From a virus (taxonomy: Duplodnaviria; Caudoviricetes), in the IMG/VR virus record IMGVR_UViG_3300001531_000060, positions 1-64,000 of that record: DNA of 64,000 nucleotides, one strand, 5' to 3'. Positions 2,988-48,448 of the stretch are shown here, one piece after another. The number at the start of each line of letters is the position of its first letter. Within the stretch, counting starts at the first letter, position 1. The translations under genes were made by a program, and so were the position numbers. Below the pieces are notes generated by a model. The model searched no databases and was not told the DNA's origin. It saw only the letters and a program-made list of their open reading frames with translations.

Positions 2988-3742
2988 TTCTTTTCCTCCA
3001 TCATATCATACGTACAAAATTTTCCACTAGAAGTTGTCTGTGATACCTTATCACATGTTACAAATTTACTACAATCTCTACAACTATGTTTTGCGAAACT
3101 AAACAAATAAGGATCTAATTGTTCACATATTTCTAGTATAGCTTTGGCTAATTCTCTAATTGGTTTATCAGCTCTTAAACAATTCCTTAAATCAAAAAAA
3201 TGAAATAGTTCTCTAGCATTCATTGTCATTATTAAATTAGTAAATGCTCCTTGAGGTAATATACCTCTTGCCACCTCTGGTTTAACACCATCATTTACTA
3301 AATCACTGTATTTATGAAAGGAAGTTATTAAAGAATCAAAAAATATTTTTTTTTGTTTCTCATTTAACTCCTGTGGTATATAACTAATATCTACCTCATT
3401 TCCTGTATCCTTCTTTGTAAGATTATTATATCTAAAACTTGTAACTGCAAATGAAGCCATTCTATGTCTTGTTAATTGAGATACTAGATATACTGGGACA
3501 TCTTCAATAGAAAAGGTAAAGCTTATATGTTCTAATATAGACATATGACCACTTTCTATAATTTTTTTCATAAGTTTTTCTGCATCTACTTGTTTAGTTT
3601 TTGGTTCCGCGCTATTAGGTATTACGGTATCTTTTATATGTGTAAATGGTTTAATACTATAACATCTTCTTGCAATACAAGCTAAAAATTCTGTATAGCT
3701 TAATATACCTGTATCGGGTTTACTTATTAAAGTTACGTTCAT
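2984..3742 (-). CDS. thyX: FAD-dependent thymidylate synthase
   Basis: GHxSILEH, signature QLTRHRMASFAVTSFRY, EVARGILP, LRNC. Confidence 0.9.
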   Translation of the reverse strand: MNVTLISKPDTGILSYTEFLACIARRCYSIKPFTHIKDTVIPNSAEPKTKQVDAEKLMKKIIESGHMSILEHISFTFSIEDVPVYLVSQLTRHRMASFAVTSFRYNNLTKKDTGNEVDISYIPQELNEKQKKIFFDSLITSFHKYSDLVNDGVKPEVARGILPQGAFTNLIMTMNARELFHFFDLRNCLRADKPIRELAKAILEICEQLDPYLFSFAKHSCRDCSKFVTCDKVSQTTSSGKFCTYDMMEEKK

Positions 3743-3753
3743 TTTATTTCTCC

Positions 3754-4551
3754 TTATTTTTTATTTGTACTTCCGAAGCCACCTTCTCCTCTTACAGACA
3801 ATGGCTTTTCTTTTATTACTTCTATAGGTAAATCATTTCTTTTTTTAATAATTAATTGTGCAATTTTACAAGGTAATTCTATTTCTGGTTTCATAACATC
3901 ATATTTATGCAATGCAACTTTCAAAGTACCTCTGTAAGCATTATCAATTATACCTTCACAATTCGCTAAAGTATATCCGGTTTTAGATATAGAACTTCTA
4001 CCAACTACATCTGTATAATATCCATCTGGAGGTACAACAACAACTCCTGTATCGTATAAAGCAGTTTTATTCCCAAGATCTTTTACTTTTTTTATTATAG
4101 TTAAATCATATCCTGTATCAGATAAATATGCTTTTGTTGGAAGAACTGCAGTTGTATCTTCTAAATAAAATTGCAAAGGAGGATTGTTTTTAAATACTTC
4201 ACCTTTAATTCCTTTTGCTATATCTTTATTTAAAGTAAATAAATTGTCGTCCATAAAATTATTATATAATATTCCAACAAAATCTATTGCTCTATCACCT
4301 TTTAATTCTATATACGGTTGTCCGGATATGGAATCACAAGCAATGGGTTTTTGCGTAAGAACACATAAATAATCCGTAAGTTTATTTGTGAAATTACCAT
4401 TTAATGTAAGTAATGAACCGAAATACATTCCACCAGATTCAAATAATCCTCTTATAAAACTTAATTTCTCTTCATTAGTATCTAATACATCAAAACTTAA
4501 GAAATCTTTGTTGTATCCTTTTCTATATGCTTCAACTAATTTTTTTTGCAT
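3754..4551 (-). CDS. dut: trimeric dUTPase with N-terminal extension (LAGLIDADG-like segment)
   Basis: dUTPase motifs DTGYDL, GRSSISK, GIIDNAYRG, IAQLI, RGEGGFGST in the C-terminal half; N-terminal FIRGLFESGG. Confidence 0.85.
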   Translation of the reverse strand: MQKKLVEAYRKGYNKDFLSFDVLDTNEEKLSFIRGLFESGGMYFGSLLTLNGNFTNKLTDYLCVLTQKPIACDSISGQPYIELKGDRAIDFVGILYNNFMDDNLFTLNKDIAKGIKGEVFKNNPPLQFYLEDTTAVLPTKAYLSDTGYDLTIIKKVKDLGNKTALYDTGVVVVPPDGYYTDVVGRSSISKTGYTLANCEGIIDNAYRGTLKVALHKYDVMKPEIELPCKIAQLIIKKRNDLPIEVIKEKPLSVRGEGGFGSTNKK

Positions 4552-4904
4552 TTTTTATTCTCCTTTTTATTTTTTTTAGGTACTTCTAGTAATAATGTTA
4601 TATAATCGTAAAGTTGCTCTGGTGTATGTAAATAGTAAGTTTTTTTATTTATTGAAACCTCAGATGTTCCCGCACCAAAGTTTTGCTCATATATCCACCA
4701 CCAAAGTAAATCATCATCAACTCCGGTAAGCCTCATAAGATCAGTGAGCATATAGACATACTGATCAATTATTGGTGATGCTATGCCAGAGATACCTGTA
4801 AATTCTGTACTAATTTTGTAGAGAACTTCATTTGCTTTCGTAAGTTTATCATCATAATTTTTTAGGAATTCAATATACTGTTTGAACTTTTTCTTTGATA
4901 TCAT
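4536..4904 (-). CDS. hypothetical protein
   Basis: 122-aa ORF, GGAGG RBS, first gene behind the 4932-4960 promoter. Confidence 0.6.
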   Translation of the reverse strand: MISKKKFKQYIEFLKNYDDKLTKANEVLYKISTEFTGISGIASPIIDQYVYMLTDLMRLTGVDDDLLWWWIYEQNFGAGTSEVSINKKTYYLHTPEQLYDYITLLLEVPKKNKKENKKCKKN

Positions 4905-4931
4905 TACGACCTCCTACAGCAATTTTAACGT

Positions 4932-4960
4932 ATTATACAATATTAGAAAATAAATGTCAA
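4932..4960 (-). promoter_or_regulatory. sigma70-type promoter
   Basis: Minus strand TTGACA (4960-4955), 17 nt, TATAAT (4937-4932). Confidence 0.85.
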
Positions 4961-5110
4961 TGAACTACCTTCTCCTGAAGGAGAAAGGTTTCCTACTTCA
5001 TAGCTTCTATGTTATTACTAGACAGCTCCATAGGCTTTACAAGACAGTTCCTGCCTTGTTTAAGAATATTAAGTGCTGCATTATAATCTCTATCAACTTC
5101 TGTATGACAT
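4961..5110 (-). ncRNA. predicted TnpB omega/reRNA scaffold (5' boundary approximate)
   Basis: By analogy with ISDra2-type TnpB, the RNA spans the tnpB 3' end and right-end hairpin, with the guide read from flanking DNA. Confidence 0.5.
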
Positions 5111-6159
5111 TTAGGACATATCCAGTTTCGATCTTTCAATGTTAAGTCTTGTTTAATGTAGCCACAATTATTACAGGTCTTTGAAGATGGGTAGAATCGA
5201 TCAACCTTAATTACAGATCGACCATACCACTTAGCTTTATATTCAAGCATTCTTATAAACTCGTACCAAGATAGTTCTTGAATACTTTTAGCTAAATGAT
5301 GATTTGAAAGCATACCTTTTATATTTAAGTCTTCAATATAAATCGTTTGGTTTTCACGAATTAATTGAGTACTTATTTTATGAAGATAATCTTTCTTACA
5401 ATTTGTTATATATTCAAATAGTTCTGCTACTTTTAAGTTAGCTTTCTTTCTGTTATTAGAACCTTTAACTTTTTTACTAGCTTGTCTTTGTAAGTATTTA
5501 AGTTTCGGTTCTACTTTCTTTAAGAAGTGCTTATTATCAAATACTTCTCCATTTGAAGTTATAGCAAAGTTTTTGATACCTAAATCTATACCTAGATCAG
5601 TATTTAATTTAGGAAGTTCTTTGATATCAAGCTCAACAGTTATATTAACAAAGTATTTATTGGTTTTTGTTTTAACTATTGAAGCTGTTACAAAATCTCC
5701 AACTAAGTCTCTGTGAAGGTTTATTTTTATACCTTCTTTAAACTTTGGAATATACAGTTTATTACTTTTAATAGATAAACTTTGAGGTATACAAAAAGAT
5801 TGTCTAGACTTTTTAGACTTAAATTTTGGAAATTTAGAACGTTTCTGAAAGAATCCTCTATATGCACTCTCTAAATTCTTTAAAGTTGCTTGTAAGGTTT
5901 GAGAATTAACTTCTTTTAACCAAAGTGTTGTTTGTTTAAGGTTAGTTAAATCTTTAGCATTATCATAATAATTAAGAAATCCTTTAACTCTTTTAGCTTC
6001 AATATCTTCTTTGTTATTAAGATAGTGCTGTTGTTCTTTATTTAGATAATAATTAAAGACAAAACGAGTGCATCCAAAGTGTTTATCAAGTAAAACACTT
6101 TGTTTCTTAGTTGGATATAAACGATAATTGTAAGTATAATGCTGTATCATTTTATACAA
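4993..6159 (-). CDS. tnpB: TnpB RNA-guided endonuclease (likely start ATG 6150)
   Basis: YRLYPT HTH N-terminus; RuvC residues in DLGIK, IEDL, DRD; zinc finger CNNC...CPKC. Confidence 0.93.
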   Translation of the reverse strand: MYKMIQHYTYNYRLYPTKKQSVLLDKHFGCTRFVFNYYLNKEQQHYLNNKEDIEAKRVKGFLNYYDNAKDLTNLKQTTLWLKEVNSQTLQATLKNLESAYRGFFQKRSKFPKFKSKKSRQSFCIPQSLSIKSNKLYIPKFKEGIKINLHRDLVGDFVTASIVKTKTNKYFVNITVELDIKELPKLNTDLGIDLGIKNFAITSNGEVFDNKHFLKKVEPKLKYLQRQASKKVKGSNNRKKANLKVAELFEYITNCKKDYLHKISTQLIRENQTIYIEDLNIKGMLSNHHLAKSIQELSWYEFIRMLEYKAKWYGRSVIKVDRFYPSSKTCNNCGYIKQDLTLKDRNWICPKCHTEVDRDYNAALNILKQGRNCLVKPMELSSNNIEAMK

Positions 6160-6200
6160 AAAGTAAATTATAGTATAAATATAGTTTTACTTTGAGTAAA

Positions 6201-6221
6201 ATTATGATACTTTTGTCAAGG
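6201..6221 (-). promoter_or_regulatory. repeated phage motif CCTTGACA-N4-TATCATAWT, copy upstream of tnpB
   Basis: Minus strand CCTTGACAAAAGTATCATAAT. Confidence 0.7.
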
Positions 6222-6227
6222 AAATTA

Positions 6228-6256
6228 TTGACAAAATATAAAAAATAATATATAAT
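6228..6256 (+). promoter_or_regulatory. sigma70-type promoter facing out of the IS left end
   Basis: TTGACA (6228-6233), 17 nt, TATAAT (6251-6256). Confidence 0.7.
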
Positions 6257-6311
6257 ATTAATTGTACAATTCATCTCTACCCCAAAGGATAGAGTCTTCT
6301 TGTATATAAAA

Positions 6312-6348
6312 ATAAAAAAATCCATAGGTACAATTTGTACCTATGGAT
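6312..6348 (-). terminator. intrinsic terminator downstream of the cold-shock gene
   Basis: AATCCATAGGTACA-x-TGTACCTATGGATT inverted repeat followed by a T run on the minus strand. Confidence 0.8.
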
Positions 6349-6375
6349 TAAAGCAAACAAATACTATGGAGAAAA

Positions 6376-6576
6376 TTATATTTTATTTACTTTCACAGCT
6401 TTATTTCCTTTTTCTGTTGCTTCTACATCAAAGCTTACTGGGTCGCCTTCATGTAAGGTTTTATGACCTTCCATTTGAATTTCAGAGAAGTGTAAGAAAT
6501 AATCATTCTTATCGTCTCCTGTAATAAATCCATACCCTTTTTGGTCATTAAACCATTTTACTTTTCCTTGATACAT
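6376..6576 (-). CDS. cold-shock domain protein (CspA family); start re-called at 6576
   Basis: GKVKWFNDQKGYGFI (RNP1) and YFLHFSEI (RNP2), 66 aa. Confidence 0.93.
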   Translation of the reverse strand: MYQGKVKWFNDQKGYGFITGDDKNDYFLHFSEIQMEGHKTLHEGDPVSFDVEATEKGNKAVKVNKI

Positions 6577-6628
6577 TTTTGTTTCTGTCTCCTTTTCTAA
6601 ATTTAACAACATCGTTATTATAACATTT

Positions 6629-6820
6629 TTATTTTTCTTTGTCAATAATATTCCAAGAAAAATCTATAAAGCAATTATTATCTTTACTATAAAGAACTAG
6701 AGCTTGTACGAAATGTATCTTAACTTCAGTAATTGTTTTACCTATAGCAGTAATATTTAGTTCCGTACATTTTGCAATATATTTATTATCTTTATAAAAG
6801 ATGTCGACTATATACTTCAT
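6629..6820 (-). CDS. HicB-like antitoxin N-terminal domain protein
   Basis: YIAKCTELNITAIGKTITEV..ALVLY matches the HicB-like YxAxxPELxxxxxGxTxEEA pattern. Confidence 0.55.
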   Translation of the reverse strand: MKYIVDIFYKDNKYIAKCTELNITAIGKTITEVKIHFVQALVLYSKDNNCFIDFSWNIIDKEK

Positions 6821-6828
6821 ATAATCTC

Positions 6829-7086
6829 CTAATCTTTTTCTTTCTCTAATCTTTTCTTTAAGATCTCTTTTGCTTTATTTACTTCTACTTTATTAGATAA
6901 ATTTTCACCGGCTCTATTAATATAGAAAGTAATCTTTTGAATTGCTTTACCTATATTACCTTTTGTTTGCTGAAGTAATACTCTAACAATCGTAGACGCT
7001 GGTTTTGTAAATAAATCTTTTGGAGTAGAATGTTTTGGCTCTACATCAGATAATTGTTTTTCTTTTGCAGTTAACCATCTAGACAT
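6829..7086 (-). CDS. MSRWL-tag protein, DUF3175-like
   Basis: Begins MSRWLTA; ITFYINRAGENL resembles the DUF3175 signature LxFYINRAGxNL (from memory). Confidence 0.55.
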   Translation of the reverse strand: MSRWLTAKEKQLSDVEPKHSTPKDLFTKPASTIVRVLLQQTKGNIGKAIQKITFYINRAGENLSNKVEVNKAKEILKKRLEKEKD

Positions 7087-7316
7087 TATTCTTTATCTCC
7101 TAATTTTTCTTTTATTATTTTGCTTTGTAATTCTTTGATATAGGGTCTAATCATCCCACCGAAATAATAAAATACTATAATTATTACGGCTACCCCTATA
7201 TAAATATTTCCATACAACAATCCTGATGCTACAAAACAAATAAAGAAACCCAATACCAATACCAATGCCAACTCAATTGCTTTAACTAAATTTGACCAAA
7301 ATGCTTTTTTAATCAT
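7086..7316 (-). CDS. small membrane protein
   Basis: Two hydrophobic stretches in 76 aa. Confidence 0.6.
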   Translation of the reverse strand: MIKKAFWSNLVKAIELALVLVLGFFICFVASGLLYGNIYIGVAVIIIVFYYFGGMIRPYIKELQSKIIKEKLGDKE

Positions 7317-7730
7317 CTTTACTTCCTCCTATTTCAGTTTTTTATTTAACCATAAACTTCCTATTATCATTATACCTACTACTATAAAATATAAAATATC
7401 CATTTTACTTTTTGCTAAATATCTTCTTAAAAATTAAAAATACAAAATAAAATGGAAGTATTGTAGCAATGACAAAAAGTGCAACTATTATTAATATTCC
7501 AGTTATTATTATCAATGGAATAATAACACACATAAATATTACAATTGCTATTAAAGACTCGAGTAAATCTTTCATTATTTTTCCTCCTTAGTAGACATCT
7601 TATCAAGTTCTTCCCTTGCTTTTTCTTCTAATCCAATCTTGTTAAGAAGATATACTTTTATTAAATTACAAGTATCTTCTATAATTGTACCTAATTTTTC
7701 TTTCATTTTATTAAGCATTATATCTCTCCT

Positions 7731-8186
7731 TTAAAAACTATAAATATAGTCTAACAATGCCATTGCTGCTTCTAATGGTGTTGTTACATTTTCTATCTTA
7801 TAAACATCCCCTTCTACAACCAAACTTCCCCCTGTAACAGCGGATATTCCTTCTGTATAATACCAAGCTTTACCATATCTATTAAATGTAGATGTTGAAA
7901 CAGATGTCCATGCTGTTGTTTCACAATATTGACTTACTTCTGAAACAAAACAAGGAAATCTCCATCCTCCTGAACCACCATCTCCTACCCAATATCCTCC
8001 ATAAGCTAAACCATCATATTTTTTTATAAATTTTCTTAGGCTACCATAATCATATAGTCCAATATATTGTCCTGCTAATGTAAATATAACATTTTCAGGT
8101 GGGTTTGGATTTAAATCTTTTATTCCATAATACTTATTATTTTTTTTAAGTGCATAATAATTATTATTCTTTTTAAATATTTTCAT
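7731..8186 (-). CDS. tail-associated protein, paralogue of the N-terminal domain of 8587-9657
   Basis: Shared KKYxGLxYGG, SEV..C, GKxWYY, LDYIYxF. Confidence 0.55.
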   Translation of the reverse strand: MKIFKKNNNYYALKKNNKYYGIKDLNPNPPENVIFTLAGQYIGLYDYGSLRKFIKKYDGLAYGGYWVGDGGSGGWRFPCFVSEVSQYCETTAWTSVSTSTFNRYGKAWYYTEGISAVTGGSLVVEGDVYKIENVTTPLEAAMALLDYIYSF

Positions 8187-17131: not shown

Positions 17132-17160
17132 TTGACATTTCAAATTAAATTTACTATAAT
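17132..17160 (+). promoter_or_regulatory. sigma70-type promoter
   Basis: TTGACA, 17 nt, TATAAT. Confidence 0.85.
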
Positions 17161-27284: not shown

Positions 27285-28205
27285 ATGAGTAAGTTTATAT
27301 TTACTACAGATTGGCATATATGTTTTCATCAACCTAGTTGTAGGGTTGATAATATAACAGAAACTCAACTGAATAAGTTGAGTTCTTTAGTTAATATATG
27401 TAATCAAGAGTTACCAGATTTTATTATTCATGGTGGAGATTTATTTGATGCTCCTAGATCTGCAGATCCATCAATACTTAATAATGTAATATCTATATTA
27501 AAGAACTTAAAATCGCCGTTCTTTTATGTTCCAGGCTCACATGATATTTATGGATATAATTTAGATTCTTATAAACAATCTTTTATTGGAACTTTAGAAG
27601 CTTCTGGCTGTATAAAGGTTTTGCATGATAAAGCTATATATAAATTTCCTTCAGACTTACTTTTAGGAGTTATGCCTTGTCAGTTGTCTAATAAAGTAGA
27701 AGACTATTTAGGATTTAAAGATTGTGATTTAATTGTTACACATAATTCTATTTCAGATATAAGTTTACCTTATGATCATATACTTATAAAAGATTTAGCA
27801 CAATACTTTAATGGTAAAATATTTTTGTGTGGACATATACATAAACCATTTTATATTATGGAAAACAATAATTTATTTGTGAATACAGGACCATTAATAA
27901 GAACATCAATTACAGAGAAAGATATTAAACCACATGTAGCAGTATTTAATAAAGTAAATACAAAGCTAGATTACAAAGATATTTTTATACCTGTATTAGA
28001 TAATATATTTGTTAATAAGAATATAACAACAGAAAGTAAAGAAGTCACTATGACATTTAATGATGCATTAAAAGATACGGATTTAGTTTTTAATGATATA
28101 TATGAGGTATTAGATCATATAGTAAAACAATTAAATGTAGATCCGAAGTACGCAGAGAAACTGAAATTGCGTTTAGAAACTGTAACAAAGAAATTGACTA
28201 AGTAA
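27285..28205 (+). CDS. SbcD/Mre11-like nuclease
   Basis: TDWH, GGDLFD, GSHD, THN, GHIH. Confidence 0.88.
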   Translation: MSKFIFTTDWHICFHQPSCRVDNITETQLNKLSSLVNICNQELPDFIIHGGDLFDAPRSADPSILNNVISILKNLKSPFFYVPGSHDIYGYNLDSYKQSFIGTLEASGCIKVLHDKAIYKFPSDLLLGVMPCQLSNKVEDYLGFKDCDLIVTHNSISDISLPYDHILIKDLAQYFNGKIFLCGHIHKPFYIMENNNLFVNTGPLIRTSITEKDIKPHVAVFNKVNTKLDYKDIFIPVLDNIFVNKNITTESKEVTMTFNDALKDTDLVFNDIYEVLDHIVKQLNVDPKYAEKLKLRLETVTKKLTK

Positions 28206-28216
28206 GAGAGGATAAT

Positions 28217-28651
28217 ATGGCACATAGTTCATCTACTAGAGAAGGTCGTGAATTTGGAGCAACATTAGAGAAGTTTGAAGAAACACAACAGAAGATGCAA
28301 TTAGATAAACAAATAGATGCTAGACTAAATGAAATAAAGAATATGTCACATGAGCAGATTGTTGAACGTATAACAAAGTTGACATCTGAAAGTTATGCAA
28401 CTAAGGCTCAGTTACAACAACTTGAGGCTGAGATAAAAGAGTGTGAAAAGGATTTAAATATTGAAGCTACTCCGGAGAATATAGTAGCTTATAAAAAACG
28501 TTTAGATACATCAATGAGAACAGCGTTATCTAATTTAGCACAATTTGAAGAAATGCTATTAGAAGAAACAAAAGATATGCATGATGATGCTAGACGTAAA
28601 TGGTTGGAAGATATTATTAATGAGGCACAAACAAATGCAAATACAAAATAA
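28217..28651 (+). CDS. coiled-coil protein, possibly an SbcC middle fragment
   Basis: Heptad repeats; lies between SbcD and the SbcC C-half. Confidence 0.5.
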   Translation: MAHSSSTREGREFGATLEKFEETQQKMQLDKQIDARLNEIKNMSHEQIVERITKLTSESYATKAQLQQLEAEIKECEKDLNIEATPENIVAYKKRLDTSMRTALSNLAQFEEMLLEETKDMHDDARRKWLEDIINEAQTNANTK

Positions 28652-29387
28652 AGTGCCAAAGATGCCTAGAAATAAACAGGCACTTGAAGAATATTTTGAA
28701 ATAAGACAACCTTATGTGACGCCGAAAGAAGAGTTCTGTGTTGACCAAAAGGTGTTGGATAAAGTTTATAAGTTAAAGAAGTATATAGAGGATATGCTTT
28801 TAGATATTGCAAAACGTGAAGGTGAATTTAATATTTATAGTTCACAGTTAAAGTCATTAGAAGATAAACAAAAAGAATTAGTAGAAGTTAAATTTGATTT
28901 AGAAAACGAAAAGGTTTTAGTTAAAGCATTATCAAAAATATCTCAGACGCAATTATCTAAGATAGAGAATTTATGTACAGTTGCATTACAAGATATTTTA
29001 CAAGATACGAATATTAAATTTAAAATTAGTATGGAAGAAACAAAGAAAGGTATAGATACATATTTTTATACAGTATCAGATGCAGGAGAGTCTGATATAT
29101 TACAATCTGAAGCAGGTGGAGTTAAGAACGTTTTATCTGTTTGTTTGCGTCTTATATTTCTTGAGTTCTGCAAACCAAAGATACAAGGTCCGGTTATATT
29201 GGATGAAGTAGGAGCCAATATATCTGCAGAGTATCAAAGTGCATTTGGAGAATTTTTAAGACAGTTTAGTGAGAAGAATAACAGACAAATAATATTAATT
29301 ACTCATAATAATAGTATAAAAGAAAAAGCACCAAATTTAATAACAATATATAAACATGGAAATGAATCTAAGGTAGGAGGTATATAA
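28581..29387 (+). CDS. SbcC/Rad50-like ATPase, C-terminal half (likely start 28635)
   Basis: Signature variant SEAGG, Walker B ILDE, IILITH. Confidence 0.82.
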   Translation: MMMLDVNGWKILLMRHKQMQIQNKVPKMPRNKQALEEYFEIRQPYVTPKEEFCVDQKVLDKVYKLKKYIEDMLLDIAKREGEFNIYSSQLKSLEDKQKELVEVKFDLENEKVLVKALSKISQTQLSKIENLCTVALQDILQDTNIKFKISMEETKKGIDTYFYTVSDAGESDILQSEAGGVKNVLSVCLRLIFLEFCKPKIQGPVILDEVGANISAEYQSAFGEFLRQFSEKNNRQIILITHNNSIKEKAPNLITIYKHGNESKVGGI

Positions 29388-29758
29388 TGCGTATAATAGA
29401 TGTAAGGAAATTAAATCGTGGGTACGTAGTTTATGTAAATGAAGATTATGATATTAAAACGTTAGATAATGATAAACGTTTTCAAGAGTTGACAACTTAT
29501 TATAAAAATCATAAACTATTAGGTAAAGAATATTACTTTACATTTGTTAAACCAGAAGCCTGTTCTAAAATTCAAACTTATTTACGTAAAAGAATTTTGG
29601 GTGTAGCACAGGAAAAGAAAGTTATAAAGCAAGATGTATTTACAGAAGGTCCATCAGAATCTTTTTTAAATAGAGGTGTTAATAAAGAACATAGAAAGAG
29701 ACAACCAAAAATAATAAAAGAAGCATTTAAAGTAACAAGAAAAAGGAGAAGAAAGTAA
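29387..29758 (+). CDS. basic hypothetical protein
   Basis: 123 aa, GGAGG RBS. Confidence 0.55.
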   Translation: MRIIDVRKLNRGYVVYVNEDYDIKTLDNDKRFQELTTYYKNHKLLGKEYYFTFVKPEACSKIQTYLRKRILGVAQEKKVIKQDVFTEGPSESFLNRGVNKEHRKRQPKIIKEAFKVTRKRRRK

Positions 29759-29760
29759 CA

Positions 29761-32223
29761 ATGAAACAATGTAACATTTGTGGTTTTAATTGTAAGAATA
29801 ATGTAGGTAGTTATATTGGAAGTAATGCAAAGGTATTATTTTTATTTGAAACACCTACATATCAAGCTGATCTAGAGAATAGAATTACAGCCGGTCCTGT
29901 AATGGAATTATTTAAACAATATTTAACGAAGCATAAAATATCATTTGATGATATAGCAATAACTTATATGTCACATTGCTTTTCCGGTACACCAACAAAA
30001 GACCAGGCATTTAAATTAACAAACAATCCTGTAAAGAAAAAATATTATGAGAATTGTAGACATCATCTAAATAAAATTTTAGAAGATGTTAAACCTAAAT
30101 TAGTTGTTTGTGTTGGAGATAGACCTACAAAGTATTTTCTTGGCGACACAAAAGCAAAGTTATTTGATGTTTATGGAGCAATAATAAAAAGTCCATTATA
30201 TAAAATAGATACATTTTGTATGTTGGATATGTATAAATTGTATTTGAAAACTCAGTATCGTTGTTACGGAGACAAATCATTTGAGTTTATTAAGAATTTT
30301 ATTGATGGTATAAAAGTACCTATGCAACAGACAAATTGTACTGTTACTGTAGATATTAAGTTATTACATGAAGCATTATCAAAGCTTTTAACATCAACAA
30401 AGACCGCTATAGATATTGAAACAAGTGGATTAAATTTTTTAAAAGATAAAATTATGGGTATAGGTTTTGCTCTTGACAAAGAGAATTCTTATTATATACC
30501 CTTACATAAATATGAGAATGATAAGATAGTTTCTTTCTGGGATGAACAAACTGAGAATTTAATTAAAGAAGATTTAAAAAAGTTTGTATCAAATGAAACA
30601 TTAAAGATTGCTTATAATGGTCAATTTGATTTTAAATTTATAAGACACTATTTAAATGTCGATAGAATTAATAATGCAAGTTTTGATGTAATGTTAGCTT
30701 CGCATTTATTAAATGAAAATTTAAATGGTATGCGTTCCTTAAAGTTATTATCTGTTTTATTTACGGATATGGGTGGATACGAATCCGTATTATATAATTG
30801 GTTACGAGAACATAAGATAGTTAAAGATGATATGTATAAAGCTCCAGTAGATATTCTTGGAACGTATTGTTGTTTAGATACGATAGCAACATATAGATTA
30901 TATAGTAAGTTTGATATACAACTTGAGAGAGAAGGTTTATTAGATGTATTTAAAAAATTAACCATGCCATTACAGAAAGTATTAATGGATGTTGAGTATG
31001 ATGGTGTACAAGTTGATATAAATCATTTAGCAGAAATTGAAAAGAATAATAAGAAAGCACTTGAAGATAAGTTAGCTGTTATTCGTGGAAAGGTTGGAGA
31101 TCCGGAATTTAATGTTAATTCAACTCAGCAGCTTGCAGATTTGATGTTTAAGAAATTAGGATGTAAAGTTTTAAGAACAACAGACTCTGGTAATCCTGCT
31201 ACAGATAAAGCAACAATTTCTAAGTATGCAAAGAAACATTCTGTACTACAAGATATACTTGATTATAAAAAGATTAGAACAGAAACATCTACATTTATAA
31301 CAGGTATGAAAGCTTTGTTAGATGATAACAACAAAGTGCATACGAATTATTTATTACATGGTACAGATTCTGGAAGATTGTCCTCAACAAATCCTAACTT
31401 ACAAAATATTCCTAGAGAGAAAACTATAAAGAATCTTTATATACCAGAACCTGGAAAGGTTATGATACAGTGCGATTTATCTCAAGGAGAGTTTAACGCT
31501 TGGGCTTCATATGCACAAGATGCAAAGATGTTAAATGATATTAAGAACGGATTAGATATTCATAGAACAGTTGCATCTAAAGTGTGGAATATGAAACCAG
31601 AAGACGTAACAAAAGAACTTCGTACATTTGCAAAGAGAGTTGTGTTTGGATTGATGTATGGTATATCTATAGAAGGTGCAGCCAAATTGGTAGGGTGTTC
31701 AGAATCCGAAGCACAAAGAATTCAAACTACGTTTTTTGGTATGTATCCAAAAGCAGCTGCTTGGTTAAAAAATATTCCGGTAGTAGCAAGAGCAAACGGT
31801 TATTTACAAACTGTATTCGGGAGAAAGAGAAGATTATCCCATCTATTTAATCATCCATTACAAAGCATAAGAAATTATGCAAATAGAGTTTCTTCTAATT
31901 TTCCTATGCAGTCGACAGTTGCAGATATTACAGCAAGGAATATGATTAATTTAAAACCATATTTAGATTCTGTAGGAGCACAAATTATATTAACTGTGCA
32001 TGATTCAATAATAGTTCAATGTGATAAAGCAATTGCAAAACAAGTATCAGAAGAAATGATGAAGATTGTTACACAACCGGTTCCAAATTATCATGGAATT
32101 ATTAGATGTGATATTGAAATTGGTGAAGCTTGGGGACATTTAGATAAAGTAGAATTTGACGAGGATACAGATAAGATTTTAAATGAGGATATTTTTTCAG
32201 AATTTGAACAAGAAAATACTTGA
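29761..32223 (+). CDS. polA: family A DNA polymerase with N-terminal uracil-DNA-glycosylase-like domain
   Basis: Exo DIETSG/YNGQFD/YCCLD; pol GRLSSTNPNLQNIP, DLSQGE, RTFAKRVVFGLMYG, HDS; N-terminal ~170 aa Cys-containing UDG family-4-like. Confidence 0.92.
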   Translation: MKQCNICGFNCKNNVGSYIGSNAKVLFLFETPTYQADLENRITAGPVMELFKQYLTKHKISFDDIAITYMSHCFSGTPTKDQAFKLTNNPVKKKYYENCRHHLNKILEDVKPKLVVCVGDRPTKYFLGDTKAKLFDVYGAIIKSPLYKIDTFCMLDMYKLYLKTQYRCYGDKSFEFIKNFIDGIKVPMQQTNCTVTVDIKLLHEALSKLLTSTKTAIDIETSGLNFLKDKIMGIGFALDKENSYYIPLHKYENDKIVSFWDEQTENLIKEDLKKFVSNETLKIAYNGQFDFKFIRHYLNVDRINNASFDVMLASHLLNENLNGMRSLKLLSVLFTDMGGYESVLYNWLREHKIVKDDMYKAPVDILGTYCCLDTIATYRLYSKFDIQLEREGLLDVFKKLTMPLQKVLMDVEYDGVQVDINHLAEIEKNNKKALEDKLAVIRGKVGDPEFNVNSTQQLADLMFKKLGCKVLRTTDSGNPATDKATISKYAKKHSVLQDILDYKKIRTETSTFITGMKALLDDNNKVHTNYLLHGTDSGRLSSTNPNLQNIPREKTIKNLYIPEPGKVMIQCDLSQGEFNAWASYAQDAKMLNDIKNGLDIHRTVASKVWNMKPEDVTKELRTFAKRVVFGLMYGISIEGAAKLVGCSESEAQRIQTTFFGMYPKAAAWLKNIPVVARANGYLQTVFGRKRRLSHLFNHPLQSIRNYANRVSSNFPMQSTVADITARNMINLKPYLDSVGAQIILTVHDSIIVQCDKAIAKQVSEEMMKIVTQPVPNYHGIIRCDIEIGEAWGHLDKVEFDEDTDKILNEDIFSEFEQENT

Positions 32224-47683: not shown

Positions 47684-48448
47684 ATGTTTAAAAGATTGTG
47701 TATGGCAGAACCAATAGAAGTCTATGCTTCAGCAAATGATATGCTTGAAGGTTGGTATGGATTTAATAGACAAGCTTCAAAAAAGATAGTAAAAGCTTTT
47801 GAGTTTGATCCGGATAACTATTTGTATTATAGAAACAGAGCTATTACAGCGGATGAAAGAAATGCAAATGGAGATATATTTCCTCACGATGAAATAAAGA
47901 AAGCATATACTACTTTTATAGGAAAAGGTATATTTTATAATCATAATTCTGATGATCCTAATAACTCTATGGGAATTATATTGGATGCTAATTTTGTTGA
48001 ACCAGCACAAAAACATGCTTATGTAGAATTACTTTGTGCTATTGATAAACAATTAGCAGAACAAAAATATCCTGGATTGTTACATAGAGTTGAATCAGGA
48101 TTGGTTTCAGGTACTTCGATGGGTACATTTGCAGGAGCTGCACAGTGCTGTATTTGTGGAAACTATACAACTACATTAGAAGGATTATGTGAACATATGA
48201 ATCCGGATGATATGCATTATTGTAAAGGTAAACTTATAAATGCTTCTACAAATGAGTATGGTGCAGAAATTAATTACGGATTATGTTTCTGTGAAGATAG
48301 TATTGTTAATGAACCAGCAGATCCAACTGCACATATTTTCCAAGTTTATGCAAGTACAAAAGATAAATTAGATGTCAATAATCCAAATAAAGAAATAATT
48401 GCAAGTTTAATAAATACTTTACAAACAATGTTAAAGGTATTGAAGTAA
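47684..48448 (+). CDS. prohead (capsid maturation) protease with Zn-finger insertion
   Basis: IFYNHN (His), GTSMG (Ser), CCICG..CEH, EDSIVNEPADP; downstream of portal. Confidence 0.78.
   Translation: MFKRLCMAEPIEVYASANDMLEGWYGFNRQASKKIVKAFEFDPDNYLYYRNRAITADERNANGDIFPHDEIKKAYTTFIGKGIFYNHNSDDPNNSMGIILDANFVEPAQKHAYVELLCAIDKQLAEQKYPGLLHRVESGLVSGTSMGTFAGAAQCCICGNYTTTLEGLCEHMNPDDMHYCKGKLINASTNEYGAEINYGLCFCEDSIVNEPADPTAHIFQVYASTKDKLDVNNPNKEIIASLINTLQTMLKVLK

Follow-up and report, generated by a model that had tools for sequence, protein, structure and literature searches.

A non-autonomous IS605-family TnpB element behind TTTAT in a large phage genome

An element of 1352 bp on the minus strand of a large phage genome (4960..6311 of the 64,000 nucleotides analysed here, called the window) is very probably a non-autonomous IS200/IS605-family element of the ISGst2/IS608 type, located behind the motif TTTAT and combining TnpB with a predicted omega RNA, such that the TnpB-RNA complex would cut element-free alleles. 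The kind of element is already known: it is an ordinary IS605-family TnpB transposon, here in a large phage genome. Its boundaries, its empty sites, the architecture of its ends, its intact nuclease motifs and the purifying selection on its gene emerge from comparison with relatives, and the naturally occurring filled and empty alleles of two related large phages give the exact ends, the TAM, the terminal motif and the predicted guide for a TnpB of 385 amino acids. The element is also an insertion sequence whose left end appears to have acquired promoter motifs typical of the phage that carries it.

The window belongs to a 73-kb IMG/VR virus record that is rated 45% complete, has 29% G+C and dense coding, and holds a single copy of the tnpB element. 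A megablast search of the INPHARED phage collection with window positions 3500-8000 gave no match. The comparison phage (G001) is a 300-kb virus record, 98% complete by CheckV, that holds the two loci discussed below, L004 and L084; the comparison of filled and empty sites rests on this one related phage lineage. Searches for more phage relatives via the protein of 122 amino acids encoded downstream and via the gene beside the second insertion site yielded nothing new. The possibility that the 300-kb contig is a concatemer of 73-kb units was rejected, given its CheckV completeness and the fact that it contains a single close copy and a single empty site.

Filled and empty sites in two related phages

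The comparison phage is collinear with the window across the insertion region, at about 79% nucleotide identity, and its allele at this position (L084) is empty. It reads GGATTTTTTTAT|TGACATTT, that is, hairpin-GGATTTTTTTAT TGACATTTAATTTTAAATATTATATAAT. In the filled allele of the window, GGATTTTTTTAT (..6312) is followed by 1352 bp and these by TGACATTTATTTTCTAATATTGTATAAT (4959..); joining its two flanks gives the L084 empty allele at TTTAT|TGACA, with zero leftover bases and no indel. The element is inserted 3' of TTTAT without a target-site duplication, and the empty site consists of TTTAT plus the right-end flank. An earlier reading made from the letters of the window (the sequence-only reading) had placed the left boundary at 6302|6301, had reconstructed the site before insertion as ATAC|TTGACA, and had proposed that these ends be checked against an empty allele in relatives. 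Such an allele is present in L084, and its alignment places the ends elsewhere: the element starts at 6311, in line with the layout of the ends in relatives, and the empty allele lacks TTTTATATAC.

A second copy of the element is located at another genomic site of the comparison phage (L004), with 92% nucleotide and 95% protein identity to the element in the window. Its sequence is GGCACTTTAT|TTGGCAC......GAGTAATTCAT|TTTGCATTTG, with flanks that read TTTAT|...AATTCAT|TTTGCA and no ATAC at the junction. At this site it is the window that is empty, L004 1-2844 corresponding to window 31489..28646 and L004 4182-5540 to window 28641..27285; filled and empty sites are reciprocal in the two related phages. 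By alignment to L004, the empty site of the window (28621..28652, minus strand) consists of TTTAT (28652..28648), a 6-nt insertion, TTTGTA, and TTTGCATTTGTTTGTGCC. The insertion (28642-28647, minus strand) is in-frame, is a near-repeat of the TTTGCA that follows, and sits exactly between TTTAT and the guide-matching sequence. It would uncouple the TAM from the target of the G001 copy, and could be a resistance allele or plain variation.

The G001 copy has no left-end hairpin, and its right-end hairpin is shortened to 5 bp. At its left junction (L004:2829-2852) there is a 12-nt tandem duplication of the flank, TTTGGCACTTTA TTTGGCACTTTA, and the outermost 65-70 nt of the left ends are unrelated between the two copies, the remainder being 92% identical. 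These oddities of the left junction may reflect capture or remodelling of flank sequence. Because of the missing hairpin, the shortened right-end hairpin and the 12-nt duplicate, the left boundary of this copy is fixed only to about 3 nt. The copy lies inside the last codons of an opposite-strand gene of 144 amino acids (L004:4170-4200, compared with window 28630-28655), where TCA from its right end supplies a new stop codon (TGA); the protein then ends in ...EAQTNAK, and that of the uninterrupted gene in the window in ...EAQTNANTK.

Architecture of the ends and the target motif

The left end follows a layout that is shared by about 20 non-redundant relatives, namely TTTAT or TTTAC, 16-20 nt, an imperfect hairpin and ATGAA. 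The window fits it exactly. Its outermost 17 nt, TTTTATATACAAGAAGA (6295..6311, minus strand; assigned from the layout in relatives), end in AAGA (6298..6295), a presumed left-end DNA guide that would pair with TTAT, judging from relatives and from the IS608/ISGst model. The subterminal hairpin, CTCTATCC-tttg-GGGTAGAG (6275..6294, minus strand), contains a T.G wobble and has a DNA fold of -5.8 kcal/mol (z -2.8). It is followed by the conserved ATGAA (6274..6270, minus strand). Among the relatives, AAAA or AAGA occurs with TTTAT, and AAAG with TTTAC. An outer stem (6263..6306, minus strand), in which TATACAA (6306..6300) pairs with TTGTACA (6269..6263), encloses the DNA guide, the hairpin and ATGAA. 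The sequences of this stem differ widely among relatives, and pairing holds at 5.6 of 7 positions across 18 of them, compared with 3.3 when partners are shuffled (maximum 4.4 in 1000 shuffles).

The right end reads ...GGAGAAGGTAGTTCA on the minus strand (last A at 4961), followed by TTGACATTTATTTTCTAATATTGTATAAT (4960..4932). It comprises a DNA guide, GAAA (4989..4992), a subterminal hairpin with a bulged T, CCTTTCTCC-ttca-GGAGAAGG (4968..4988), and the terminal transposon-encoded motif TTCAT (4960..4964), all on the minus strand. The subterminal hairpins at both ends are homologous to those of relatives, with compensatory changes; at the right end these affect 7 of the 13 consensus pairs in 20 relatives. 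The right-end hairpin would in addition form the final stem of the guide-RNA (omega RNA) scaffold. The GTAGTTCA that follows it is conserved in about 125 relatives, and sequences diverge beyond that point.

The position of the right boundary follows from covariation, counted over 110 non-redundant ends from relatives of 40-58% protein identity. The base after TTCA pairs with the fourth base of GAAN: A with T in 13 of 16 cases, G with C in 23 of 24, and T with A in 37 of 45. The same relationship between DNA guide and cleavage motif is known from IS608 and the ISGst elements. It assigns the T at 4960 to the element, and the flank starts at 4959 (TGACAT). The sequence-only reading had correctly observed that the right end (...GGTAGTTCA, 4961) is immediately followed by a perfect TTGACA-N17-TATAAT promoter at 4960..4932 of the minus strand, and its right boundary was accurate to within one base, the T at 4960 having been assigned to the flank. 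The junction falls inside the -35 hexamer, whose first T, at 4960, is the last base of the element in the filled allele and comes from the TAM in the empty one. Because TTTAT and TTCAT end alike, the hexamer TTGACA is preserved.

TTTAT (6312..6316, minus strand), phage DNA located directly 5' of the left end, is taken as the probable TAM because in this family TnpA targets the motif that TnpB uses as its TAM, and the TAM of ISGst2 TnpB2 is TTTAT. Four lines agree on the motif: the empty-site join, the second copy, the left-end layout in relatives, and the covariation at the right end. With 796 occurrences of TTTAT in the window, the target motif is not limiting.

These four lines speak against the TAM of about (T)ATAC that had been proposed from the window. 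The corresponding model, in which the element spans 4962..6301, the site is ATAC|TTGACA, and the 10-11 nt missing from the relative are an unrelated indel in a T-rich spacer, is very improbable. It can draw on the strings ATACTTGACA (23457 and 32216) and GTACTTGACA (16728), which are present as the sequence-only reading had noted and head three other perfect promoters, and on the fact that the relative is only about 79% identical here, where an indel is possible in principle. However, the join is exact with no indel, the junction of the G001 copy has TTTAT and no ATAC, and about 20 relatives have TTTAT or TTTAC at a distance of 16-20 nt from the left-end hairpin, whereas ATAC is only 7 nt away; the base after TTCA, moreover, belongs to the element. 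A boundary at 6302|6301 would also cut the covarying outer stem, and ATAC is therefore element and not flank. The promoters of similar context had been offered as independent support for the boundaries, but that support is void because ATAC lies inside the conserved left-end stem, and ATACTTGACA with at most one mismatch is not enriched in any case (6 found, 8.8 expected). The perfect promoters of the phage split between ...TA-TTGACA and ...TAC-TTGACA contexts, which makes the resemblance to a string within the left end a coincidence.

Two further candidates were considered and rejected. A TAM of TTTA with a guide starting at TTGACA fits the empty site equally well, and is ruled out by the right-end covariation and the conserved TTTAT. 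ATCC in L006 and L007 was considered as support for an AT[A/C]C TAM; it was dropped because L007, in common with the other relatives, has (A)TTAT 18 nt 5' of its hairpin.

Terminator, promoters and neighbouring genes

Upstream of the element is csp, a cold-shock-protein gene (about 6573..6376, minus strand; phrog_729 match), with a perfect promoter (6645..6617, minus strand) and, by terminator scan, an intrinsic terminator consisting of a hairpin and T-tract (6319..6349, minus strand). A homologous hairpin and T-tract are present in L084. In the window the T-tract runs into the TTTAT motif (6316..6312). Downstream of the element, the perfect sigma70-type promoter TTGACA-N17-TATAAT (4932..4960, minus strand), which has a homologue at the empty site of L084, begins 33 nt past the tnpB stop codon and serves the next operon; 3' of it are an AGGAGG ribosome-binding site and the ATG (4904, minus strand) of the gene encoding the protein of 122 amino acids. 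Perfect sites of this type occur 7 times in the window, compared with 0.30 expected by chance. Several phage promoters read TTA-TTGACA, and so the -35 box often overlaps the TTAT target motif.

Promoter motifs also occur inside the left end. A perfect TTGACA-N17-TATAAT promoter (6228..6256, plus strand; motif scan) is directed outward, antisense to tnpB, and on a reading of the sequence is kept in the G001 copy, where it faces a neighbouring gene. A second motif, CTTGACA-N7-CATAAT (6201..6220, minus strand), is located 50 nt 5' of the tnpB start codon and is specific to these phages: it is found, among 261 loci, only in theirs, including the G001 element copy, and in the form CTTGACA-N7-CATAWT it occurs 7 times in the window (0.43 expected). 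These left-end motifs suggest adaptation of the element to this phage lineage.

Several minor observations concern the same region. The two TTGACA boxes of the left end, placed back to back, both recur in the G001 copy, and TnpB relatives elsewhere lack them. The gene that the outward promoter faces in that phage has been severed from its upstream gene by the insertion. The csp promoter (6617-6645, minus strand) and the outward left-end promoter (6228-6256, plus strand) have a common extended upstream context, GGAA(T)ATTATTGACAAA. In the related phage, L084:3430-4540 contains an extra free-standing gene of 351 amino acids (Pfam DUF7487) with its own terminator, which separates the stop codon of csp from the terminator of csp. 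This insertion repeats the last ~10 nt of csp (AAAATATAAT) and resembles free-standing insertions of the homing-endonuclease type.

TnpB, its predicted guide and possible roles

The open reading frame at 6150..4993, which the sequence-only reading had already identified as TnpB, encodes 385 amino acids (tnpB, 4993..6150, minus strand) and scores above the cut-offs of three Pfam domains: PF12323 (HTH_OrfB_IS605), PF01385 (OrfB_IS605) and PF07282 (Cas12f1-like TNB, zinc ribbon). It aligns with the ISDra2 TnpB structures 8BF8/8EXA/8H1J over 365 residues (E 2.8e-64), and alignment to 8BF8 indicates that the RuvC Asp-Glu-Asp triad and the zinc ribbon are intact, with GIDLGIK, (IY)IEDLN and (V)DRDYNAALNI kept. 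Copies with more than about 58% amino acid identity were absent from the viral, metagenome and genome collections outside the G001 lineage (L004 = L005 = L089). Between the window and that lineage, dN/dS is 0.089 at a dS of 0.31, both reading frames being full length with intact catalytic motifs; by this codon comparison tnpB is under purifying selection. The last 250 nt of the gene, which form the predicted guide-RNA region, show 96-97% identity between the two copies, compared with 86-94% in most of the gene. The low dN/dS, the two intact reading frames and the conserved 3' end support continued function.

An Rfam scan of 4500-6800 by E-value found no guide-RNA family, returning only a chance snoRNA match. 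The consensus fold of the scaffold from 20 relatives recovered the terminal hairpin only, and the upstream scaffold of the window copy is too diverged to align. The family mechanism predicts that the guide would be templated by the flank directly 3' of the right end, TGACATTTATTTTCTAATAT (4940..4959, minus strand). The sequence-only reading had proposed a guide that carries a -35 box, and the templating flank does hold -35 sequence because the right end sits against that box; the predicted guide would start at TGACAT, however, and not at TTGACA. The empty allele of the comparison phage differs from this guide at positions 10, 14 and 15, and with three mismatches its present-day cleavage is uncertain.

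It may be asked whether the element is instead a fixed, decaying passenger whose TnpB and guide RNA no longer act in the phage. The three guide mismatches of the empty allele, the degenerate ends of the G001 copy and the lack of TnpA in cis would all fit such a state. It is nevertheless unlikely, since the dN/dS of 0.089 has been maintained over a dS of 0.31 with both reading frames full length and catalytically intact, the 3' end of tnpB is better conserved than most of the gene, and the phage-specific motif and the consensus promoter are kept in the left ends of both copies.

Y1 TnpA (PF01797) has no match in records G000 and G002 and none in the 73-kb fragment; the comparison phage contains a sub-threshold 22-bit fragment with an internal stop codon (G001:251522-251638, L261). 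With no intact TnpA, the element is non-autonomous and would have been mobilised in trans or in the past. Absence of TnpA is common in the IS200/IS605 family and is compatible with membership. A weak (71%) match to the 3' region of tnpB was also observed at G001:164372-164500 (L257), and this locus and L261 may be remnants of other IS605-family elements.

The element very probably entered by single-strand 'peel-and-paste' transposition, with Y1 TnpA acting in trans, directly 3' of TTTAT. The target used here is the tail of the csp terminator T-tract, directly before the TGACA of an early sigma70-type promoter. The TTCAT end of the element rebuilds TTGACA, so that the downstream promoter core survives, and the A/T-rich DNA upstream of the -35 box is replaced by the right end of the element. 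The gap between terminator and promoter is probably among the few places that tolerate 1.35 kb in a densely coding phage. The presence of a -35 box in the guide is attributed to the location of this tolerated TTTAT site, and is no sign of promoter regulation.

Production of a guide RNA, cleavage, and homing or retention would be expected by analogy with characterised relatives. Transcription of tnpB through the right end would yield a guide RNA whose guide starts with TGACATTTATTTTC, and the TnpB-RNA complex would cut TTTAT+TGACATTT..., the sequence left behind by scarless excision or present in a co-infecting relative with an empty allele. Repair by recombination with a genome that carries the element would then put it back or copy it across.

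The closest model is ISGst2 of Geobacillus stearothermophilus. Plasmid interference, a TAM library and ChIP-seq established TTTAT as the TAM of its TnpB2, its terminal motif is TTCAC, its TAM and terminal motif covary with DNA guides, and in E. coli recombination after TnpB cutting restores or spreads the element (Meers et al. 2023, bioRxiv 10.1101/2023.03.14.532601). ISGst2 is TnpB-only and is mobilised by a TnpA in trans. The element described here is likewise TnpB-only, presumably mobilised in trans, with TTTAT as the probable TAM, a terminal motif close to the TAM and covarying subterminal guides. The excision joint (TAM plus right-end flank) is the TnpB target in ISGst2 and would be so here. 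It differs in its terminal motif (TTCAT), its right-end guide (GAAA), its location in a jumbo-phage genome and the phage-type promoter motifs of its left end. The Geobacillus relatives in the locus set have about 41-43% protein identity to the TnpB of the window.

The ends also resemble those of IS608 from Helicobacter pylori, in which the target motif is about 17-19 nt 5' of the left-end hairpin, the cleavage motif follows the right-end hairpin after a few nt, and each hairpin foot has a 4-nt DNA guide on its 5' side. The guide pairs of IS608 are TTAC/AAAG and TCAA/GAAT, and relatives with GGAAT...TTCAA and AAAG...TTTAC reproduce them. IS608 carries tnpA in cis and uses TTAC, whereas the element in the window has no tnpA and is found behind TTTAT. 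The RuvC triad and zinc ribbon are shared with ISDra2 TnpB, which has TTGAT as its TAM and takes its guide from the right-end flank, as is predicted here; the guide-RNA sequence of the window element cannot be aligned.

If cleavage occurs in mixed infections, the phage-adapted insertion sequence, with tnpB under CTTGACA-N7-CATAAT and an outward promoter, could act between co-infecting jumbo phages as a device for RNA-guided homing or marker exclusion, a suggestion that is tentative and rather doubtful. Rivals without the element would then be cut at the terminator-promoter junction (TTTAT+TGACAT...), and the reciprocal filled and empty sites, together with the 6-nt insertion that separates TAM from target, would be traces of conflict. 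The predicted scheme is similar to that of SegF, a free-standing homing endonuclease of phage T4, in that the element-free allele of a co-infecting phage would be cut and the element copied by recombination. Unlike with SegF, specificity would come from an RNA guide and a TAM and not from protein-DNA recognition, and new sites would be reached by TnpA transposition. TnpB-driven homing or competition between co-infecting phages has been proposed by analogy with homing endonucleases, and the pair of phages may offer a convenient case in which to examine it.

A regulatory role has also been considered. TldRs are RNA-guided, TAM-dependent proteins that target promoter DNA (PMC13565253). A TnpB-RNA complex that similarly occludes RNA polymerase, either at its own TTCAT+TGACAT junction or at other promoters with TTAT-TGACA, is highly unlikely here, although the predicted guide would span the -35 box of a perfect promoter together with its spacer, a single base distinguishes the terminal motif from the TAM, several phage promoters read ..TTA-TTGACA, and in ChIP-seq nuclease-dead TnpB2 bound many TAM sites with little seed requirement (bioRxiv 10.1101/2023.03.14.532601). 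TldRs lack RuvC catalysis and transposon ends, whereas this TnpB keeps its Asp-Glu-Asp triad and sits in an element with complete ends, TAM and terminal motif; cleavage by TnpB2 is, in addition, reported to be highly sensitive to TAM mutations (bioRxiv 10.1101/2023.03.14.532601). Nor is a position beside a promoter a property of the element, given that the target of the G001 copy is the 3' end of a coding sequence, and with its corrected anatomy, that of a textbook IS605/ISGst2-type element, the promoter-seed idea loses its basis.

The proposal that the complex might bind other promoters finds no support in the window. The promoters that the sequence-only reading had named (16732, 23461 and 32220) are preceded by TAC and not by TTTAT or TTAT. 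Every TTAT-flanked site in the window has at least two mismatches in the first 12 nt; the best such partial match, at 48377 on the minus strand, mismatches at 2 of the first 12 nt and at 6 of 20. The promoter at 17132 combines CTAT with an 8-nt guide match.
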